A stretch of DNA of 64,000 nt from Gammaproteobacteria bacterium (GCA_029862125.1 JAOTXY010000011.1:572-64571); one strand, 5' to 3'; shown: positions 43,537 to 51,768, numbered from the stretch's first letter. Notes: generated by a model from the letters alone, not told the origin. Numbers and translations: made by a program.

Positions 43537-44250
43537 TTATTGATCGGCAGCGTTAAAAGCTTTGTGTTTGAAGATCAGTTGCTTGGCTTTTTCGTAAGAT
43601 CCGGTCGGGATTATAGATTCGTCTTTCAAGCGCCGCAGCTCGCGCAATTCCCGCGCCAGGAATTTATTCTGGTTTAATCCCTTGGCGGTCTTGCTTCTGT
43701 TGATTTGCATGATGAATTTATTGACAAAACTGCGAAAACTGGCGTTATCAGGGTTCTTGTTGATGAGTTCCACCAGCCTTATTTTGCCGTACTGGGTACG
43801 AAAAAATACCTTGTCATGCGAATAGTAGAAAAATGCCAGCAGGCACATGATTGCAACAACCGTAATCGCCGTGAAAGCGCCGAAGAAACTTAGCGAAAAT
43901 GTATCGAGCCAACCCGAAAAATACAACGCGGCATCGAGTCCCAGCAATGCCAGGGATAAATACAACCACTTCCAGGCCTTGACCCGGATTCTAAAGGGCC
44001 GCGGATCCAGGTATGCGAGATCGATACGAAACTTGTACTTGCGCTGATGCTTGATTTTGATCGACTGGTAAAGTTGCGTGTCGTTGAATACAGTAAAGTG
44101 CCGATATACGCCGTGCAGCTTGTTGACCTGCTCGAACTCGAAGTTGATATGTTCGACAGGAACCTGCTCGTTATCGGAAAAATTCGTAGTGGTTGAGTCC
44201 TCTAAAGGCTCCAGATCGATTTCAACTGATTCAACGTTAACTTCGGCCAT
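43537..44250 (-). CDS. hypothetical inner-membrane protein (two central TM segments)
   Basis: 237-aa ORF with an acidic N-terminus, WKWLYLSLALLG...FFYYS hydrophobic hairpin and basic C-terminus. Confidence 0.75.
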   Translation of the reverse strand: MAEVNVESVEIDLEPLEDSTTTNFSDNEQVPVEHINFEFEQVNKLHGVYRHFTVFNDTQLYQSIKIKHQRKYKFRIDLAYLDPRPFRIRVKAWKWLYLSLALLGLDAALYFSGWLDTFSLSFFGAFTAITVVAIMCLLAFFYYSHDKVFFRTQYGKIRLVELINKNPDNASFRSFVNKFIMQINRSKTAKGLNQNKFLARELRELRRLKDESIIPTGSYEKAKQLIFKHKAFNAADQ

Positions 44251-44349
44251 TTATTAGATTTAGTGGTTTGGAACCTTCTATAAATAGCACAAATAACGGC
44301 AATAACACGGGTTCTCCTGATTTAATGCGACAAACAGCCTGATCACTGT

Positions 44350-44387
44350 AAAAAACCTGAAAATGTGGGTATGCCGTCCTTCAGGTT
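44350..44387 (-). terminator. possible terminator with 18-nt loop downstream of the DUF3604 gene
   Basis: Minus strand AACCTGAA-18 nt-TTCAGGTT followed by TTTT. Confidence 0.4.
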
Positions 44388-44499
44388 CAATGGCGAGACT
44401 TACCCCTGGAGCTGGTTTTATAACGCTTGACCGGCATTCGCAACGGTGATTTCAACTCAGGTGCCGGGGCCAGCAGTGGGATAATGAAGCCAGTCTGCT

Positions 44500-46743
44500 T
44501 CAACGAATCAGGTAAATCGGGCTGGACCAGGAGTAGTGGCCGTCTTCATGCGTTACCCGGACATAAAGCGGGTTATCGCGTTGCGTAACCAGTTCGATAT
44601 CGCGTTCGATTTTTAACGCGCAATGGGGATTATGATCGGGTAATCGAAACACTCTTATTCGACGCTCGATGCCACCGTTAGCAAAAATTAATTCATGGCG
44701 TCCGATATCGCTAATCTCGATCTCCTGCTGAACCAGTGCAGTATCGATGTGCAAAGTGCCTGTATCGCGTTCCCGTAATATGGCTTCAAAGCCACCAAAT
44801 CCACCGGTTGTCAGCGCACTCCATTCAACGCGGTCGTCAGCGGTCTGTTGGAAACGTCGATCCAGGTTGTAGCGATTGATCGGCGTCACCGACTCGAAAC
44901 CGTTATCGCTCAGTTTTGCATGACCATCCCAGATGGTTTCGCGACCGCGGCCGCGATACTCGGAGCCTTCCCAGATGACACGGATGCGATGCCCGAGATC
45001 GGCTTCGCTGTAAGGGCGAAAGATTTCCAGCGTATCGAGCCCGTTACGGATATCGATGCGCTCGATGGGTGCTGCGCTGTGAACGTCAATGTGGAACTTT
45101 ACGCTGTCCTGCGAGGTTTGCAGGATGTCACCCATCATCGCTTCGCGTACCATTTCAGAACTGACGTCACCCAGCCTCGGATCGTCGGAGAAGAGTTCAG
45201 CCGGTTGCGTGAATTCGACCCGGGTATCCAGTATCACCCGACTGCCGGTAGTGCCGTAGTGATGCCTTTGACGTAAACCCTGCATGATACCTGCGCGGGT
45301 AAAGTCGGGCGCCAGCACACAGGTCAGGCCGCCATAAGCACCAAAACTGGTAGAACCGGGGTGAGATGCCCCGGGACGGCCCTTGTGTCCATCGGAGTTA
45401 GAAAGGATACCGACGCGGTAACCCTGCTCGAAAGCGTCGTGAACCAGCCATTCGAAGGTGCCCCAGGCCGAATGAACTTCGACGCCCTTTTCGATGCGCT
45501 GGTCGTGGGCAACCTTGATATCGGCATAGCGTCCGCCGATATGTGCAAACACGGTGCAATCCTCATCCTTTAATGCCTCGAATAAATCGCCGGCCGAGGT
45601 TGCGTCGCTTTCGACATCGGACAAATCATCAACCAGCGCATGCGAGGAGCGATGTATCGGTCGACCTTCATGCATGTGCAGCACATTCCTGTCGCCACCC
45701 AGCCCGGTATTGCCCGACCATTCCCAGCCGGGAAACACGATGAAGCTTCCATCCTCGGTAAATTCCGCGGAAAGTTCGTTAAGCCATTGCCAGAATTCAC
45801 CGGTTATTTGAAAGTCATTCCCCTGGTGCACGCAAATATCGAGGAATGCCTTGTCGCGCGCAAACTCGTAGAAATCGCGTGCCGAATTGGTACCGATGGT
45901 TTCCTCCGACTGGCCATGCAGGTCGCCCCAGTAGGGCAGTAAATCGGCATCGGCGATGAATCGACAGGGATTCGATTTAGCAAGCAGGTTGTCGTCGGCG
46001 TCGAGCAACTCGATAATCAAATCACCAGTCTCGACAACATTCAGATGTTCGAGAATCCGTGTGAATTTGCCAACTTCAAAAGTAACCGAATCGGGCAGGC
46101 CATCGACGATCATATTGGCGCGTAACTTCAGCTTCAGGTCGCCAAGATTCGATGGATTGCCCCAGCGGTCTTCTCCCTTGAGGCAAAGCCGGAAACTGTC
46201 CTGTTGCTGCCGCATGGTCGGTAATATCGCTTTAAAGAGGACGGGTGGGCCAGGCACGATCTCGATCTCCGGCTGATGCGGCAGTTCAACATAGTTGTAG
46301 GTTGCTATCGCATCGACAAGCACCTTGAATTCGAAGGTTTTCTCACAAAAGGTCTGGATCCGCATGCCGGGTGAGCCTTGGCGTCGATCACCGAAACGCA
46401 CAATGATCTGATCACCCTCGCGCAAAAATCCCCGCACTACCTTAATGTAAAGCGTCTTGTCCCAGGGACGGATATTTCGCTTCATATCGTACTCGATATG
46501 TAAAACGGCCCCGTTAGTGGCTTCGGCGGTGACATAATTGGCAGCATCGGGTTTGTCAAACTGGGGTTTGCCCATGTCCGACGCAAAACGATGCACTATT
46601 TTGAGTGACCCGGTATCGTCGATTCCAAAATAACCCGCGGTATAAGTGAGGGTGAATTCCTGGAACGAGCCAGCTTCGAAACTACCGGTTGGTGCAACCG
46701 AGGCTGAACCCATCTTTTCGGGAAGGTAGGTAGAGTGGGGCAC
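44500..46743 (-). CDS. DUF3604-like PHP-fold putative metallohydrolase
   Basis: YWGDLHGQS, HQGND, FPGWEWSG, AHIGG, EVHSAWG, NSDGH metal-binding-type motifs; no signal peptide. Confidence 0.75.
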   Translation of the reverse strand: MPHSTYLPEKMGSASVAPTGSFEAGSFQEFTLTYTAGYFGIDDTGSLKIVHRFASDMGKPQFDKPDAANYVTAEATNGAVLHIEYDMKRNIRPWDKTLYIKVVRGFLREGDQIIVRFGDRRQGSPGMRIQTFCEKTFEFKVLVDAIATYNYVELPHQPEIEIVPGPPVLFKAILPTMRQQQDSFRLCLKGEDRWGNPSNLGDLKLKLRANMIVDGLPDSVTFEVGKFTRILEHLNVVETGDLIIELLDADDNLLAKSNPCRFIADADLLPYWGDLHGQSEETIGTNSARDFYEFARDKAFLDICVHQGNDFQITGEFWQWLNELSAEFTEDGSFIVFPGWEWSGNTGLGGDRNVLHMHEGRPIHRSSHALVDDLSDVESDATSAGDLFEALKDEDCTVFAHIGGRYADIKVAHDQRIEKGVEVHSAWGTFEWLVHDAFEQGYRVGILSNSDGHKGRPGASHPGSTSFGAYGGLTCVLAPDFTRAGIMQGLRQRHHYGTTGSRVILDTRVEFTQPAELFSDDPRLGDVSSEMVREAMMGDILQTSQDSVKFHIDVHSAAPIERIDIRNGLDTLEIFRPYSEADLGHRIRVIWEGSEYRGRGRETIWDGHAKLSDNGFESVTPINRYNLDRRFQQTADDRVEWSALTTGGFGGFEAILRERDTGTLHIDTALVQQEIEISDIGRHELIFANGGIERRIRVFRLPDHNPHCALKIERDIELVTQRDNPLYVRVTHEDGHYSWSSPIYLIR

Positions 46744-47232
46744 AGGTGTATTGTCCTCGTAAACGTGACAGCGAACAGGTTCTGGTCGCTTATTTTAACT
46801 GGTATAAGGGGCTTTAGAACATGGTTTGTTTTCTCGATAATTCAAATGTACCGAATTAAAACCGGATTTTATCGGCATATCGTTTAATTCGGCGTAAAAC
46901 TGGTACTTAAAGCAATGACGGTTAAGCGTATTTTCTTTATTATTGGAGCAGGCAACATAGGTTCACAAATTTCAACAACGACTATTTTGGTTCGCAACCA
47001 AACGACGGCACTCATACAGGAGACAGACTATTGAATGTTCCGAATAAGCAGTTTCCCTCCTCATCGGTAACCTTTTCCATGTTGATTTCAGAATCAATTT
47101 ACAAGCATGTCGTGGGTATCGAACCTACTATTCGCTGGTTTGCAAAAGCTGTTTTCAGACCCTGCCTGGCCCAGTTCAGGTGCCTGCTATGGTGAAAACA
47201 GATATCCAAATCGTACAAATCGGCGTCGATTT

Positions 47233-48465
47233 ATGATCCAACGCAGGTTTGTAGCAGCCACGCTATCGTGTCTATTAATGGGAGTCCCCGGCCTGGCACA
47301 GGCTGCCGTTTGCGATATCGATAAAGATGGCGACGTGGATCGCCTGGATATCAGCCTGATCATCAGTGCACGCGATACACCGGCGGATGGATCACGCGAT
47401 CTGCGTGATCCAGACGGTGACGGCAATATCACAGTGTTCGATGCACGGACCTGTATACGGCGGTGTAATTTGCCAGACTGTCAGATAGTCGATCCTGCAC
47501 CCCCTCCCACAACCGATAATTCAGACCAACTTAAAACACCGGTGGTAACTCCAGCTCAGAATACAGGAGATAAAGCCAGTAAACCAAGCGTGGCAGCTAC
47601 AAATCAGTCAGGTACTGGTATCCAGGGAAGGGCGATGGCCAGCGGCACTAAATGGAAAGTAAAACGTGGCGATACCCTGTATGCGATCGGTCGTGCTGTT
47701 TATCCGGGGGATGTCAATAAGCAGGCCCGTTTAAGGCAGGATATCATCAAGTTGAATCCCGCTATTTTCGCCAATGGCGCCAATAAAATGGCCGTTGGTG
47801 TCGTTCTGAAACTGCCCGATTATGTCATTCCAAAAGATGCGCCGGTCGAAGCTACTCCCAAACCACCGCCAAAGCTTGTTGAGCCTGCCCCGGTCGTTAA
47901 GCCTGCCCCGGTCGTTAAGCCTGCCCCGGTCGTTAAGCCTGCCCCGGTGGTTGAACCTGAACCCGAAACACCACAGGAAATCTCGGCATCTTTCGTGCGC
48001 ACAGAAAGTAATTACCTGGTCAGTCTTGGTTACGCTTACGGTGGGGATAAGCTGGTTTATGAAGATGGTTCCTACGATCCTGCAGGGGCTGGTGCCCATG
48101 CGCGTCTGGGTTATGAACAAATGTATCAATTTGGTGGCGGCTATCGCGTAGGGCTCGGTTTTCAATACGGTTTTACGGAAGACTCGACATTGCAGGATGT
48201 CTATTTGCAATTGGCGTATCAATATCGCTCAAATCCATTTATTTTCGGGATTGGTGTTGTTGTTCATGATGGGGCGACGCTCGAAGATGATTCCACTATC
48301 GAATACGATGCCGCAAATGGTGTGGTTGTGTATTTGGAGAATGTCGGGAAAGGTGACCTGGCTGGCTGGGGGCTTAGTTACACCTCCCTGGATATTGAAG
48401 ACAAAGACAGCTCTGAATCATTTGATGCATCGCGAGCCGAACTTTATTACAGTTGGCGTTTTTAA
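47233..48465 (+). CDS. outer-membrane protein: dockerin-like EF-hand pair + LysM + Pro-rich linker + beta-barrel
   Basis: Signal peptide from ATG 47233; DIDKDGDVD and DPDGDGNIT loops; WKVKRGDTLYAIG...LKLP LysM; C-terminal alternating strands ending YYSWRF. Confidence 0.8.
   Translation: MIQRRFVAATLSCLLMGVPGLAQAAVCDIDKDGDVDRLDISLIISARDTPADGSRDLRDPDGDGNITVFDARTCIRRCNLPDCQIVDPAPPPTTDNSDQLKTPVVTPAQNTGDKASKPSVAATNQSGTGIQGRAMASGTKWKVKRGDTLYAIGRAVYPGDVNKQARLRQDIIKLNPAIFANGANKMAVGVVLKLPDYVIPKDAPVEATPKPPPKLVEPAPVVKPAPVVKPAPVVKPAPVVEPEPETPQEISASFVRTESNYLVSLGYAYGGDKLVYEDGSYDPAGAGAHARLGYEQMYQFGGGYRVGLGFQYGFTEDSTLQDVYLQLAYQYRSNPFIFGIGVVVHDGATLEDDSTIEYDAANGVVVYLENVGKGDLAGWGLSYTSLDIEDKDSSESFDASRAELYYSWRF
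47883..47954 (+). repeat. 18-bp coding tandem repeat x4 (PAPVVK)
   Basis: GCCTGCCCCGGTCGTTAA three times exactly, plus one variant copy. Confidence 0.95.
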
Positions 48466-48518
48466 TTTCAATCCCGGGAGCGGAATACCGGCTCACAATA
48501 AGCTAGCCGTGGTATTTT

Positions 48519-48974
48519 TCATTTTTTTGCTATTGCGAGGATATGCCGGCTAAATGCGTCATCCTCACCTTCAAGGAGGTCGGGCAGTAATTCGACGAAC
48601 TCCTTTTTGCGGCACCACTCTGCCATGTCGTCTTCCCAGGACATCCAGCGACGTTTTGCATCGGGTTTCATATTTTCGGAATAGAGAATAATGTAGGCCT
48701 TTTCAAATAGTGACACCAGCATCCTGTAGATAATTTCCCGTCGTTCGAGTTGTTCCTCTGATAGTGTAGGCGGATTATTCGATGCCCTTAAAAGTAAAAG
48801 GTCGGCATTGTCCAGAACCAGCCTCAGGAAATTATCGTATTCCTCTGAAAGGTGTCGGTGGAGTTCGTTTTCTTCATTATCGAGACGTCTTCTATGCTCG
48901 TAAATAAAAACGAGAATAGCGGTTGGGAAACCCAGTATTGTTACCAGGTAACTCAATGCCTCTAACCAGGTCAT
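48519..48974 (-). CDS. conserved hypothetical protein with single N-terminal TM anchor
   Basis: LSYLVTILGFPTAILVFIYE followed by a helical domain (LVSLFEKAY...RWMSWED...W). Confidence 0.75.
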   Translation of the reverse strand: MTWLEALSYLVTILGFPTAILVFIYEHRRRLDNEENELHRHLSEEYDNFLRLVLDNADLLLLRASNNPPTLSEEQLERREIIYRMLVSLFEKAYIILYSENMKPDAKRRWMSWEDDMAEWCRKKEFVELLPDLLEGEDDAFSRHILAIAKK

Positions 48975-48978
48975 GGCA

Positions 48979-49983
48979 TTAAACCTTTACAACCAGCTTT
49001 CCAAAATGCCCTGCAGCGCGCATTGCGTGATAGGCGGAGCGTGCATCTTCAAAATCAAATACCCGGTCAATAACCGGGTGTATCTTGTTTAGAGCGAAGG
49101 CCGCGTTCATGTCTTCGAACATCCGGCGGTTGCCAACATAAACACCTTGCAGGCGGATTGATTTTCGCATCACGGTGGTGGGATTAATCGCGCCGCCTGT
49201 CAGGACTCCGATCAAACTGATGGTACCGCCGATCCGGGTAGCCTCCATTGTTTTCTCCAGGGTCCCGCCACCGCCGGTCTCAATGGTCACATCGACACCA
49301 CTACCATTGGTCATTTCGAGGACTTGTTTTTCCCAGGCAGGGTTCTGGCGATAGTTGATCAATTCATCTGCGCCCAGCACCCTGGCACGGGTCAATTTAT
49401 CATCACTGGATGACGTAACTATTGCCCGCGCGCCCATCATTTTTGCAATCTGCAAACCGATGATTGATACACCACCGGTGCCAAGAAACAATGCCGTGTT
49501 GCCTGCCCTGAGGCCACCCTGTTCAACCAGGCAGTTCCAGGCAGTCAATCCGGCACAAGGAAGTGTCGATGCTTCTTCAAATGACATATGGGCGGGAATG
49601 TGCACCGCACCGGCTTCGTTAAGCACCACCTGTTCGGAGAGGACGCCATCAACCGAACCACCCATTGCGCTGGCCATGGCTTCAGCTGATATGCGCCCGT
49701 CAGACCAGTTCTGGAAGAAACATCCAGCAACCCGGTCTCCGATTTCAAACCGGGAGACTTCTGCACCGACACCAATCACCTCGCCGGCACCGTCAGAATT
49801 CGGGATCAGCGGGTACTCGATACCTCGTGGAACAGGGTCTTCAATTGTCGAGAGATCTCGATAATTTATGGATGAGGCTCGGATGCTAACGAGTATTTCA
49901 CTCGCTCCCGGTTGCGGTGATTGCCTTTTGTTCAGGGCAAGCGCATCGACACCGTCGTCTGATACTATTTCATAAGTGCGCAT
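48979..49983 (-). CDS. MDR-family NAD(P)-dependent oxidoreductase (zinc-independent type)
   Basis: SINYRD, PNSDGAGEV, LPCAGLTAW, GTGGVS, HFGKLV. Confidence 0.92.
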   Translation of the reverse strand: MRTYEIVSDDGVDALALNKRQSPQPGASEILVSIRASSINYRDLSTIEDPVPRGIEYPLIPNSDGAGEVIGVGAEVSRFEIGDRVAGCFFQNWSDGRISAEAMASAMGGSVDGVLSEQVVLNEAGAVHIPAHMSFEEASTLPCAGLTAWNCLVEQGGLRAGNTALFLGTGGVSIIGLQIAKMMGARAIVTSSSDDKLTRARVLGADELINYRQNPAWEKQVLEMTNGSGVDVTIETGGGGTLEKTMEATRIGGTISLIGVLTGGAINPTTVMRKSIRLQGVYVGNRRMFEDMNAAFALNKIHPVIDRVFDFEDARSAYHAMRAAGHFGKLVVKV

Positions 49984-50233
49984 GTGAAATCTTCAAAAAA
50001 CTCTGCCTGAATCTGCCTGGACACACTCTCCATGTTGGAGAAATTTTTGTCAATTACTGATTCACAATATATTAGCGAGGATCAACTAACGACGTCCTCT
50101 GCCAGCGACAACCCCGCAACCGGTTTGTGCAAGCGGTACAGGAATGTTTAAGCAATAAGGAAGTCGGTAGTGCTTTTTTCCGGGGAGTGCAGAATGGAAT
50201 AAAATTTAGTACCCCGGGATTAGATCAGTTTAA

Positions 50234-50467
50234 CTAGTTAAAGCTGAACAGTTTTTTAAACGAGGACTTTAAAGAGGAAACCTCACTGCGATCAGTACCA
50301 AAGTATTGCCGAACAAGTTCATCTCGTATTTTCTGCTGTCTGCGTTCGGCCCGATCTTTACCGACGACACTGCTGACTACTTGCGTAAAATCAGTAATCA
50401 GGCTATTGTCAGTAGCATCGGTGTTATCGCTTCTTCTTGTTCCCGGTAAAGTTATTTCTTCGTTCAT
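50234..50467 (-). CDS. hypothetical protein (77 aa)
   Basis: Co-oriented ORF in an otherwise empty gap; no recognisable motif; weak RBS. Confidence 0.45.
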   Translation of the reverse strand: MNEEITLPGTRRSDNTDATDNSLITDFTQVVSSVVGKDRAERRQQKIRDELVRQYFGTDRSEVSSLKSSFKKLFSFN

Positions 50468-50844
50468 CTATTTTGAATCTGCCTAAATTGTAGCGGCCAG
50501 CCATGGCCTCATTTTCAATCCGGTGCATCCGCATTAATACCAGCAAAGCATAACAAGGCATTAATATGGCGACATCCCCTGTATGGGTTAAATGTTTAAT
50601 TGCTGAAATGTTGCAGCGGGATGGTTTTTTGCTGTGGTTTTCTTTAAAAAAGACAGCAACGGGATACTTGACTTACACGCCCCTGATTAGAAATTAATGC
50701 TAGCCGACGGGTATCTTGTGCGACCGAAACGGCAAAATAACAGCATACTTTCATAATGCTTTAGGAGGCTTTGCTGTCAGTGGCGATGTTTTTCTTGTTA
50801 TCCGCTTATGTGCTGCGGGAGGATAAGGAGTTACGACAATATTA

Positions 50845-51768
50845 TTACTGTCTCGCAATATCGGTTTGGAACAGGTAGGTTTCTTCTAAATCTTCATCGA
50901 TATCGAGGTCAACCATTCCGAGAGACTCCATTACTTCAAACCACTGTTCGTCGGCCAGGCGGCAGGCGATGGCTATTTGCTCCGATGTGCACTTCGATTT
51001 TTCCCAGTTCGGAATTGTCGACAGGATATCCGCTACCACATCTTCTTCCTCTTCTTCTTCATCGATATTATTCAGGTCAAGCCGGCTCAATTTATTCGCC
51101 AAATATACAATGCTGGTTTCAACTGCTATTTGCCCATTGTGATCGGTATCGTGGTGTCTTTTCACGCATTGGGTAATCAGACCTGGAATGCCCCATTTAT
51201 CCAGTAACGCAACCCCGACATCGATGTGTGAAACCCCCAGCTTTTCGGTTTCGACCTGGATGACATCCTTGTTTTCGGTTCTCGCAAGTTCGGAGATCTG
51301 GATATAAGAGCCCGGATTCACTTTTGCGATTACCAGCCATCCGATATCATGCAACAGCCCGGCCGTGAAGAAAGCCTCGTGATCGATGACACATGCATTT
51401 TGCATCGCCAGTTGCCTGCCGATAATCGCGGTTTTTATACTATGTTGCCAGAAGTCCCTTAGCGGAAACTCGGTGATATCAAAATCTTTAAAAACGCCGG
51501 CTAATACGGAACCCACCAGGACCTGTCGTAACTGCTGGCGACCCAGTAAGGTTACGGCCTGGGGGATGGAGGTAACCGGATTTTGCAATCCGTAGTAGGC
51601 GCTGTTGATCAGTTTCAGGATTCTGGCGGTTAATGCGGGATCGGACTGAACCGCTTCTCCGATTTTTATGCCGGTTGAGCTTTCAGTCTCAAGCAGTTCA
51701 GTTACCCTGATATAGACTTCGGGAAGTGAAGGTAACTCACCTGCCTGCTTTAGTAGAGGTTCCAGCAT
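50845..51768 (-). CDS. HDOD domain protein
   Basis: LPSLPEV, DPALTARILKLINSAYYG, FWQHS, AGLLHDIG, W-G-I-P. Confidence 0.92.
   Translation of the reverse strand: MLEPLLKQAGELPSLPEVYIRVTELLETESSTGIKIGEAVQSDPALTARILKLINSAYYGLQNPVTSIPQAVTLLGRQQLRQVLVGSVLAGVFKDFDITEFPLRDFWQHSIKTAIIGRQLAMQNACVIDHEAFFTAGLLHDIGWLVIAKVNPGSYIQISELARTENKDVIQVETEKLGVSHIDVGVALLDKWGIPGLITQCVKRHHDTDHNGQIAVETSIVYLANKLSRLDLNNIDEEEEEEDVVADILSTIPNWEKSKCTSEQIAIACRLADEQWFEVMESLGMVDLDIDEDLEETYLFQTDIARQ

Follow-up and report, generated by a model that had tools for sequence, protein, structure and literature searches.

What would a bacterium do with a secreted protein that places a dockerin-like calcium-binding head, a LysM domain and a proline-rich repeat in front of a small beta-barrel? 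The question is raised by a gene at positions 47233-48465, on the plus strand, of a 64,000-nucleotide stretch of DNA from an uncultured bacterium of marine sediment, a Gammaproteobacteria bacterium (GCA_029862125.1 JAOTXY010000011.1:572-64571), which we refer to at its full length as the window. The open reading frame translates to 410 amino acids, and the answer that we regard as reasonably probable is that its product ties the outer membrane to peptidoglycan, as a functional analogue of OmpA with permuted domains. The protein belongs to a real, conserved and previously undescribed family whose probable role is a variation on outer-membrane tethering.

The domain parse was obtained with Pfam, Foldseek and an AlphaFold2 model of the full-length protein built with a 45-sequence alignment, and it confirms the architecture. 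All the features listed in the original prediction (the signal peptide, two loops with associated cysteines, a LysM, a repeat and a barrel-like end) are present, and they are arranged as follows, with model confidence given as the predicted local distance difference test (pLDDT).

47233..47304, plus strand: Sec signal peptide, residues 1-24, with predicted cleavage between AQA and A, and the same type of N-terminus in homologues.
47305..47490, plus strand: dockerin-type-I-like, putatively calcium-binding module with four invariant cysteines, residues 25-86, recognized by Pfam Dockerin_1 and the module profile; pLDDT 75-83.
47491..47640, plus strand: linker 1, variable and disordered, residues 87-136; pLDDT below 50, identity to relatives 42-62%.
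47641..47820, plus strand: FimV-type LysM domain, residues 137-196, recognized by its model fold, Foldseek and family-level Pfam LysM.
47821..47997, plus strand: linker 2, rich in Pro, Glu and Lys, residues 197-255; 29% Pro, pLDDT below 50.
47878..47952, plus strand: 18-bp tandem repeat encoding (PAPVVK)n, 4.2 copies by Tandem Repeats Finder.
47998..48462, plus strand: predicted C-terminal 8-stranded outer-membrane beta-barrel, residues 256-410 (155 amino acids), from AlphaFold2 and Foldseek; it ends in YYSWRF.

The signal peptide, as read from the sequence, is MIQRRFVAATLSCLLMGVPGLAQA followed by A, with a basic n-region, a hydrophobic core and the AQA site. The remaining parts recur together in a sizeable family: a word-indexed search returned 157 relatives, and an exhaustive HMMER scan of 1.84 billion representatives returned 29 clusters at E<=1e-30. 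None of the relatives has a functional name; the label is 'hypothetical protein', with 'LysM repeat protein' or 'nucleoid-associated protein YgaU' in occasional entries. Those with a named source come from metagenome-assembled genomes (MAGs) of uncultured Gammaproteobacteria, for the most part from marine sediment, one of them labelled Thiotrichaceae. The core of LysM, linker and barrel is kept in all full-length relatives. The head varies: 67 sequences have the dockerin-like form, 25 carry a second LysM in its place, and up to 15, including some truncated ones, have no head. The combination is not represented by any family in Pfam or NCBIfam or by any named homologue, and in the literature we found neither a LysM with an 8-stranded C-terminal barrel nor the four-Cys module described, so the novelty claimed for the architecture at the outset stands. 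Selection differs between the parts: pairwise ratios of nonsynonymous to synonymous substitution rates (omega) against five relatives are 0.14-0.41 for the dockerin-like head, 0.12-0.22 for the LysM and 0.11-0.38 for the barrel, and 0.7-0.86 for linker 1. The three folded parts are under purifying selection, and linker 1 drifts almost neutrally.

Is the C-terminal domain a membrane barrel? AlphaFold2 predicts eight strands (residues 257-270, 287-298, 303-314, 319-333, 336-351, 355-370, 379-390 and 396-409; pLDDT 80-93) of 12-16 residues each, connected by short periplasmic turns of 4, 2 and 8 residues and with one long external loop of 16 residues. The significant Foldseek matches in the PDB are 8-stranded outer-membrane barrels only (E 9e-5 to 1e-3, probability 1.0), namely Ail (3qra, E 9e-5), OmpA (1bxw, target template-modeling (TM) score 0.61), NspA (1p4t), OmpX, PagL and OprF, with target TM scores of 0.55-0.61. 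The modeled barrel is thus of the Ail/OmpA/NspA/OmpX fold, and the resemblance is at the level of the fold only. The chain ends in AELYYSWRF; a terminal Phe is found in 138 of 148 family sequences, among which Y-x-W-x-F and YSWRF-like endings dominate, and this agrees with the C-terminal beta-signal of substrates of the beta-barrel assembly machinery (BAM), which ends in an aromatic residue, usually Phe. The original prediction had named a C-terminus that is not a barrel as the result that would undo it, and with eight predicted strands and fold matches to 8-stranded barrels the result went the other way.

Sequence comparison places the barrel apart. Searches of Pfam and NCBIfam with the whole protein at E<=1 returned nothing on the barrel, four divergent barrels of the family gave zero Pfam matches even at E<=10, and sequence profiles did not assign it to OmpX/Ail/OMP_b-brl (PF06316, PF13505). 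A barrel profile found a match only at chance level among PDB sequences (E 0.21), and a barrel-only profile run against 5.8 billion proteins recovered fragments of the same family and neither stand-alone barrels nor named relatives. Because there is no match in Pfam, among PDB sequences or to a stand-alone barrel, the domain constitutes a family of its own at the sequence level, and one that is always joined to LysM. We also note that external loop 1 (48043-48090, residues 271-286) has the near-invariant sequence YGGD[KE]L...AG.G, modeled at low confidence, and that it may be a binding or plug element.

These properties bear on two alternative explanations. The first is that the protein is soluble, secreted or periplasmic, with a C-terminal barrel that is not in a membrane and looks like an outer-membrane protein by coincidence. 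Some strand faces are indeed weakly hydrophobic, the domain is acidic (24 Asp and Glu versus 9 Lys and Arg), and the sequence matches no known outer-membrane protein family. However, membrane barrels are the only significant structural matches, and strands of 12-16 residues, strand ends rich in aromatic residues and the near-invariant terminal aromatic-x-aromatic-x-Phe are hallmarks of BAM substrates, and we consider a soluble protein highly improbable. The second is that the barrel is itself the functional element, serving for example as a receptor or small channel, or as an enzyme that acts on lipids in the way of PagL or PagP, and that the LysM merely immobilizes it. The barrel is the most conserved part of the protein, with many invariant polar residues (Arg, Glu, Gln, Asp and Tyr) and the conserved loop 1, and PagL is among the fold matches. 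On the other hand, the best fold matches are non-enzymatic anchors, and charged interiors are normal for barrels of the OmpA/OmpX type. The invariant columns contain no invariant His and no catalytic set of the Ser-His type, and an enzymatic barrel like that of PagL was rejected on these grounds. A barrel with a function of its own as the purpose of the protein thus seems to us quite improbable.

The wall-binding part of the proposal depends on the LysM domain. Pfam LysM (PF01476) is matched by 13 of 45 family members (best E 2.1e-7), and both the full and the isolated models contain a beta-alpha-alpha-beta unit (pLDDT 75-88) that Foldseek matches to 4uz2, 5k2l and 6u5b_6 with probabilities of 0.84-0.97; the single-domain chains 5k2l and 6u5b_6 reach target TM scores of 0.69-0.71, and 4uz2 one of 0.38. 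The family-level score and the fold together identify the domain as a LysM. The region has weak matches to FimV_core (TIGR03505) and to E. coli Kbp, and we label it FimV-type because of its long insert and the weak TIGR03505 matches. LysM-like domains of FimV and HubP are periplasmic wall binders (PMC12918733, PMC5285504), and in inverse autotransporters a LysM situated N-terminal to the barrel binds peptidoglycan (PMC5595812; bioRxiv 10.64898/2026.01.22.700529). The closest LysM relatives outside the family are in proteins that combine LysM and FecR domains (among P0155, P0164, P0179, P0191, P0202 and P0223), and in one further protein, P0186, a LysM occurs with tetratricopeptide repeats (TPR) and a barrel that is Slam/BBP2-like. 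LysM domains of the FimV type are thus found in combination with further modules of the envelope, one of them a different outer-membrane barrel.

How, then, could the parts act together? The protein would be exported by Sec, and the BAM pathway would insert the 155-residue barrel through its terminal Y-x-W-[RK]-F signal. An 8-stranded barrel is expected to begin and finish on the periplasmic side, and because both of its ends would lie in the periplasm, so would the Pro-rich linker, the LysM, the disordered spacer and the putative calcium-binding head; the modeled pattern of short periplasmic turns and one long external loop fits the usual rule for such barrels. The FimV-type LysM would bind peptidoglycan non-covalently, and through this binding the protein would tie the outer membrane to the wall. 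The (PAPVVK)n hinge would be a flexible, slippage-prone spacer that limits reach, and the head may be an accessory second attachment, acting either by calcium-dependent self-association or by binding an envelope partner. We infer that the head adds attachment or avidity to the tether because a second LysM can take its place in relatives. A tether was one of two functions suggested in the original prediction, and it is the one that suits the predicted topology of the chain, in which LysM and head are beneath the outer membrane.

The other suggestion was a surface-displayed adhesin, in which the barrel anchors the protein and the LysM and head face outward, where they would attach to chitin-like glycans or to a partner on another cell. 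Chitin is a possible ligand of LysM domains, and the dockerin-like module elsewhere accompanies repeats of the adhesin type. The gene also evolves faster than its neighbors: in the contig L003, from a related MAG, compared with positions 43537-51768 of the window, the neighboring proteins are 96-98% identical and the LysM-barrel protein is 86% identical. However, these differences are concentrated in the signal peptide and linker 1 rather than in the folded domains. Display at the surface also conflicts with a wall-binding LysM and with the expected topology of the barrel, since in an 8-stranded barrel the two termini are periplasmic and the lumen is too narrow for passage of the chain, and all of the fold matches are to barrels of this kind; there is no 12-stranded barrel of the autotransporter type and no Pfam match to an autotransporter family or to IAT_beta. 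We therefore disfavor the adhesin and judge it very unlikely.

If the protein is a tether, the length of the hinge is of particular interest. Tandem Repeats Finder reports a repeat with period 18 and 4.2 copies at 47878-47952 (96% matches, score 136), which includes three exact copies of aagcctgccccggtcgtt. Across the family, linker 2 ranges from 45 to about 106 amino acids (median 70) with about 20% Pro, and in composition it resembles the Pro-rich hinge of E. coli OmpA. The contig L017, from another sample, is 99.9% identical to the window over 11 kb and lacks exactly 36 bp, which is two repeat units, such that it has two units where the window has four, with no other change inside the gene. 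The repeat array slips. We note that Logan contigs from four sediment runs (3-6x depth) break at the repeat, so the difference of four versus two units rests on two assemblies. Repeat number does vary, as this pair shows, and linker length ranges widely in the family; the accompanying idea that repeat number sets the periplasmic span is at most a possibility, and a flexible linker rich in Pro puts an upper bound on reach but does not hold a fixed distance.

What the head contributes is a more complex question. It contains two calcium-type loops, DIDKDGDVDRLD (residues 28-39) and DPDGDGNITVFD (residues 59-70), each followed by a helix, with Cys27 before the loops and Cys75, Cys79 and Cys84 after them. 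The score with Pfam Dockerin_1 (PF00404) is 25.4 bits, above the cut-off of 22.9 (E 1.6e-5), over an aligned stretch of one repeat only (residues 23-44), and 34 of 45 family members match the model (best E 3.4e-8); by score and by its duplicated calcium loop and helix the head has the sequence characteristics of a type I dockerin. A profile of 44 head modules spans both loops of the dockerin chains 2y3n_B (E 1.6e-4), 4fl4_A and 1ohz_B (E up to 3e-4), and the same profile scores EF-hand proteins equally well. Since EF-hand proteins match as well as dockerins do, 'dockerin-like EF-hand pair' is the right level of claim. The full model shows two helices in the head (pLDDT 75-83), and an isolated model of the N-terminal half from 11 sequences has a head pLDDT of only 46-64 and finds the dockerin chains 2ozn_B, 1ohz_B and 2vn5_D at E 1.3-4.5. 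The pattern of the module is C-D-x-D-x-D-G-x-[VI]-D-x-x-D ... P-R-D-x-D-G-D-G-x-I-T ... D-A-R-x-C-x-x-x-C-x-x-x-x-C, with nine invariant positions of which four are Cys, and the head is probably stabilized by disulfides and loaded with calcium. Cys27 was also considered as a lipoprotein cysteine and rejected, as the preceding residues are unlike those of a lipobox and differ from one member of the module family to another.

The four-Cys module is far commoner than the LysM-barrel family and is promiscuous, being found on many secreted proteins (P0149-P0268; loci L018-L082). In a search with 1255 matches at E<=0.001, most of the best non-family matches among those listed fall on the module, and no NCBIfam model covers it. 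In MAGs of Gammaproteobacteria it follows the signal peptide of large proteins and is N-terminal in 61 of 70, in company with PKD, cadherin-like, Big_9, PASTA plus S8 protease and choice-of-anchor-D domains, and in a scan of other metagenomes it mostly occupies the last 60 residues, the classic dockerin position. The head resembles cellulosomal type I dockerins (C. thermocellum Xyn10B, 1ohz_B) in having two tandem units of a 12-residue calcium loop plus helix at dockerin spacing, and differs from them in its four-Cys clamp, its mostly N-terminal location after a signal peptide in Gammaproteobacteria and its probably periplasmic position in the protein described here.

The abundance of the module raises the possibility that the protein is a wall-anchored docking platform, one whose main job would be to hold the head at a defined place below the outer membrane, perhaps at the peptidoglycan of septum or pole, and there to capture a cohesin-like or other partner, or proteins with the same module. 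Such a role is consistent with a stereotyped head with its nine invariant positions under purifying selection, with the presence of the module on many other secreted proteins, and with the targeting of specific wall sites by FimV-type LysM domains (PMC5285504). A possible socket can be proposed as well, since small PEP-CTERM proteins neighbor module-bearing genes in five metagenome loci that are unrelated to one another. In four loci (L023, L039, L048 and L053) a gene for a secreted PEP-CTERM protein of roughly 210-260 amino acids is directly beside a gene that ends in the module, and members of the same cluster occur in two further module loci (L049 and L031). Their positions are as follows.

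L023, 12755-13531, minus strand: PEP-CTERM protein.
L039, 748-1431, plus strand: PEP-CTERM protein.
L048, 4388-5413, plus strand: PEP-CTERM protein.
L049, 1754-2506, plus strand: PEP-CTERM protein.
L053, 373-1107, plus strand: PEP-CTERM protein.
L031, 6299-6925, minus strand: PEP-CTERM protein.

The PEP-CTERM proteins are possible candidates for a cell-surface socket of the four-Cys module; Pfam recognizes no cohesin or other ectodomain family in them. However, neither the window nor the flanks of the relatives (L001-L017) contain a cohesin-like protein, such as the original prediction had suggested looking for, or a second module-bearing gene, and the PEP-CTERM counterpart is likewise absent from the window and from the loci of the LysM-barrel family. 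In addition, recognition positions 10 and 11 of the two loops, judged from the amino acids themselves, are R-L and V-F rather than the S-T of cellulosomal dockerins. Because 25 relatives have a second LysM where the head would be and others have neither, the head appears dispensable for the core function of the protein. Docking as the principal role is thus unlikely in our estimation. A broader proposal, in which the four-Cys module would represent a widespread and undescribed calcium-dependent plug-and-socket system of Gram-negative envelopes, present on hundreds of secreted proteins, and the LysM-barrel protein a periplasmic docking post fixed to wall and outer membrane, possibly at the septum or pole, that couples dockerin-mediated assemblies to the wall, is in our view decidedly unlikely.

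Returning to the tether, there are several points that weigh against it and have to be set beside the evidence above. The window protein taken alone is below threshold in both relevant LysM models (13 bits against 20.9 for Pfam LysM and 13.5 against 43.45 for FimV_core), and the topology derives from the strand count of a predicted structure. The PKD, cadherin-like, Big_9 and S8 protease companions of the head module are typical of extracellular proteins, such that a periplasmic place for the head is not self-evident. The conservation of loop 1 is unusual for a surface loop of a small barrel and hints at a function of the barrel beyond anchoring. Finally, a search of RNA runs found none that holds the gene; sequencing runs in which the window's gene does occur are almost exclusively metagenomes of sediment, for the most part marine.

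How does the proposed tether relate to known systems? Its closest counterparts are E. coli OmpA and P. aeruginosa OprF, with which it shares the 8-stranded barrel fold (1bxw, target TM 0.61; 4rlc) and a flexible Pro-rich hinge leading to a periplasmic domain that binds peptidoglycan non-covalently, a binding that is putative for the protein described here. The role of outer-membrane-to-wall coupler (PMC11648852) is likely shared. However, the order is reversed, with the wall binder N-terminal and the barrel C-terminal, a LysM is used instead of OmpA_C, there is an additional dockerin-like head, and the barrels have no detectable sequence similarity. There is no match to Pfam OmpA_membrane (PF01389) or OmpA (PF00691), and because the protein is without OmpA_C, without a sequence match and in the reverse order, it is not a member of the OmpA family, although it is OmpA-like in its proposed function.

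Similar considerations apply to three other groups. Inverse autotransporters (intimin, invasin and YeeJ) also begin with a signal peptide and place a periplasmic LysM N-terminal to the barrel (PMC5595812), but theirs has 12 strands (IAT_beta) and is followed by a C-terminal passenger, whereas the barrel here has eight strands, ends the protein and carries no passenger. The barrels of invasin and intimin match weakly in Foldseek (E 5.5e-3 to 7e-3, target TM about 0.2), and with eight strands and no IAT_beta match the protein is not an inverse autotransporter (type Ve; PF11924). OmpM and SlpA of diderm Terrabacteria likewise have an N-terminal wall binder, a stalk and a C-terminal tethering barrel (PMC10628300, PMC9388160). 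They are found in other phyla, bind a pyruvylated polymer through an S-layer homology (SLH) domain, and have a stalk formed by a coiled coil and a large, trimeric barrel of the porin type, compared to the LysM, Pro-rich linker and small monomer-type barrel of the gammaproteobacterial protein; there is no SLH match, the linker is disordered rather than helical, and the predicted strands number eight. With FimV and HubP, whose LysM-like domain is located in the periplasm (PMC12918733), the shared feature is a LysM subtype with a long insert, ...P(G)D..KQ..L...I..LNP..F..GAN.M..G..L.LP. FimV itself resides in the inner membrane and has a large acidic part in the cytoplasm and a TPR/FimV C-terminus. 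The LysM-barrel protein shows none of these features, and it falls outside the FimV/HubP family in its FimV_core score, in having no transmembrane or cytoplasmic part and in ending in a barrel.

The genomic context offers a further perspective. A longer open frame begins at an ATG at 47107, 42 codons upstream, and this extension (47107-47232) has no counterpart in homologues; 47233 is the likely start because the homologues and the independent gene call in L017 begin at a signal peptide of the form M-x-x-R-R-F (MIQRRF-type). One relative, P0005, carries a long N-terminal extension of another kind, which has the appearance of a gene-calling artefact. Next to the gene in the window are an AT-rich spacer of 489 bp and, on the opposite strand, unrelated genes, with a DUF3604/PHP-type hydrolase upstream and a 151-amino-acid open reading frame followed by a zinc alcohol dehydrogenase downstream. 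Synteny is kept only in the close relatives L017 and L003. In L001 the gene comes after xseA and in L002 it precedes rimP-nusA-infB, and because these neighborhoods differ from that in the window there is no operon partner. A gene that stands alone, with no conserved partners in L001, L002 and the window, fits a structural envelope protein. The 151-amino-acid reading frame (48519-48974, minus strand) converges on the gene, has a hydrophobic start and matches no Pfam family; it is conserved in L017 only, and in L003 it is mostly missing, with a match of just 42 amino acids.

Proteobacteria are believed to tether their outer membrane through Lpp, Pal and OmpA and, in some lineages, through covalently linked barrels. 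If the reading as a tether is true, the family would represent a fourth non-covalent tether design for Gammaproteobacteria, in which a hinge connects a LysM to a small C-terminal barrel. It would mirror both the logic of OmpM in Terrabacteria and the stub of LysM and barrel found in inverse autotransporters. The significance of this rests on prediction for hosts that are uncultured, and the expected function would be a variation on a familiar theme. Even so, the family offers a barrel without sequence relatives, and because repeat number differs between near-identical genomes it is a natural experiment in hinge length. Its head, moreover, points to a large set of putatively calcium-binding terminal modules on secreted proteins of uncultured bacteria.

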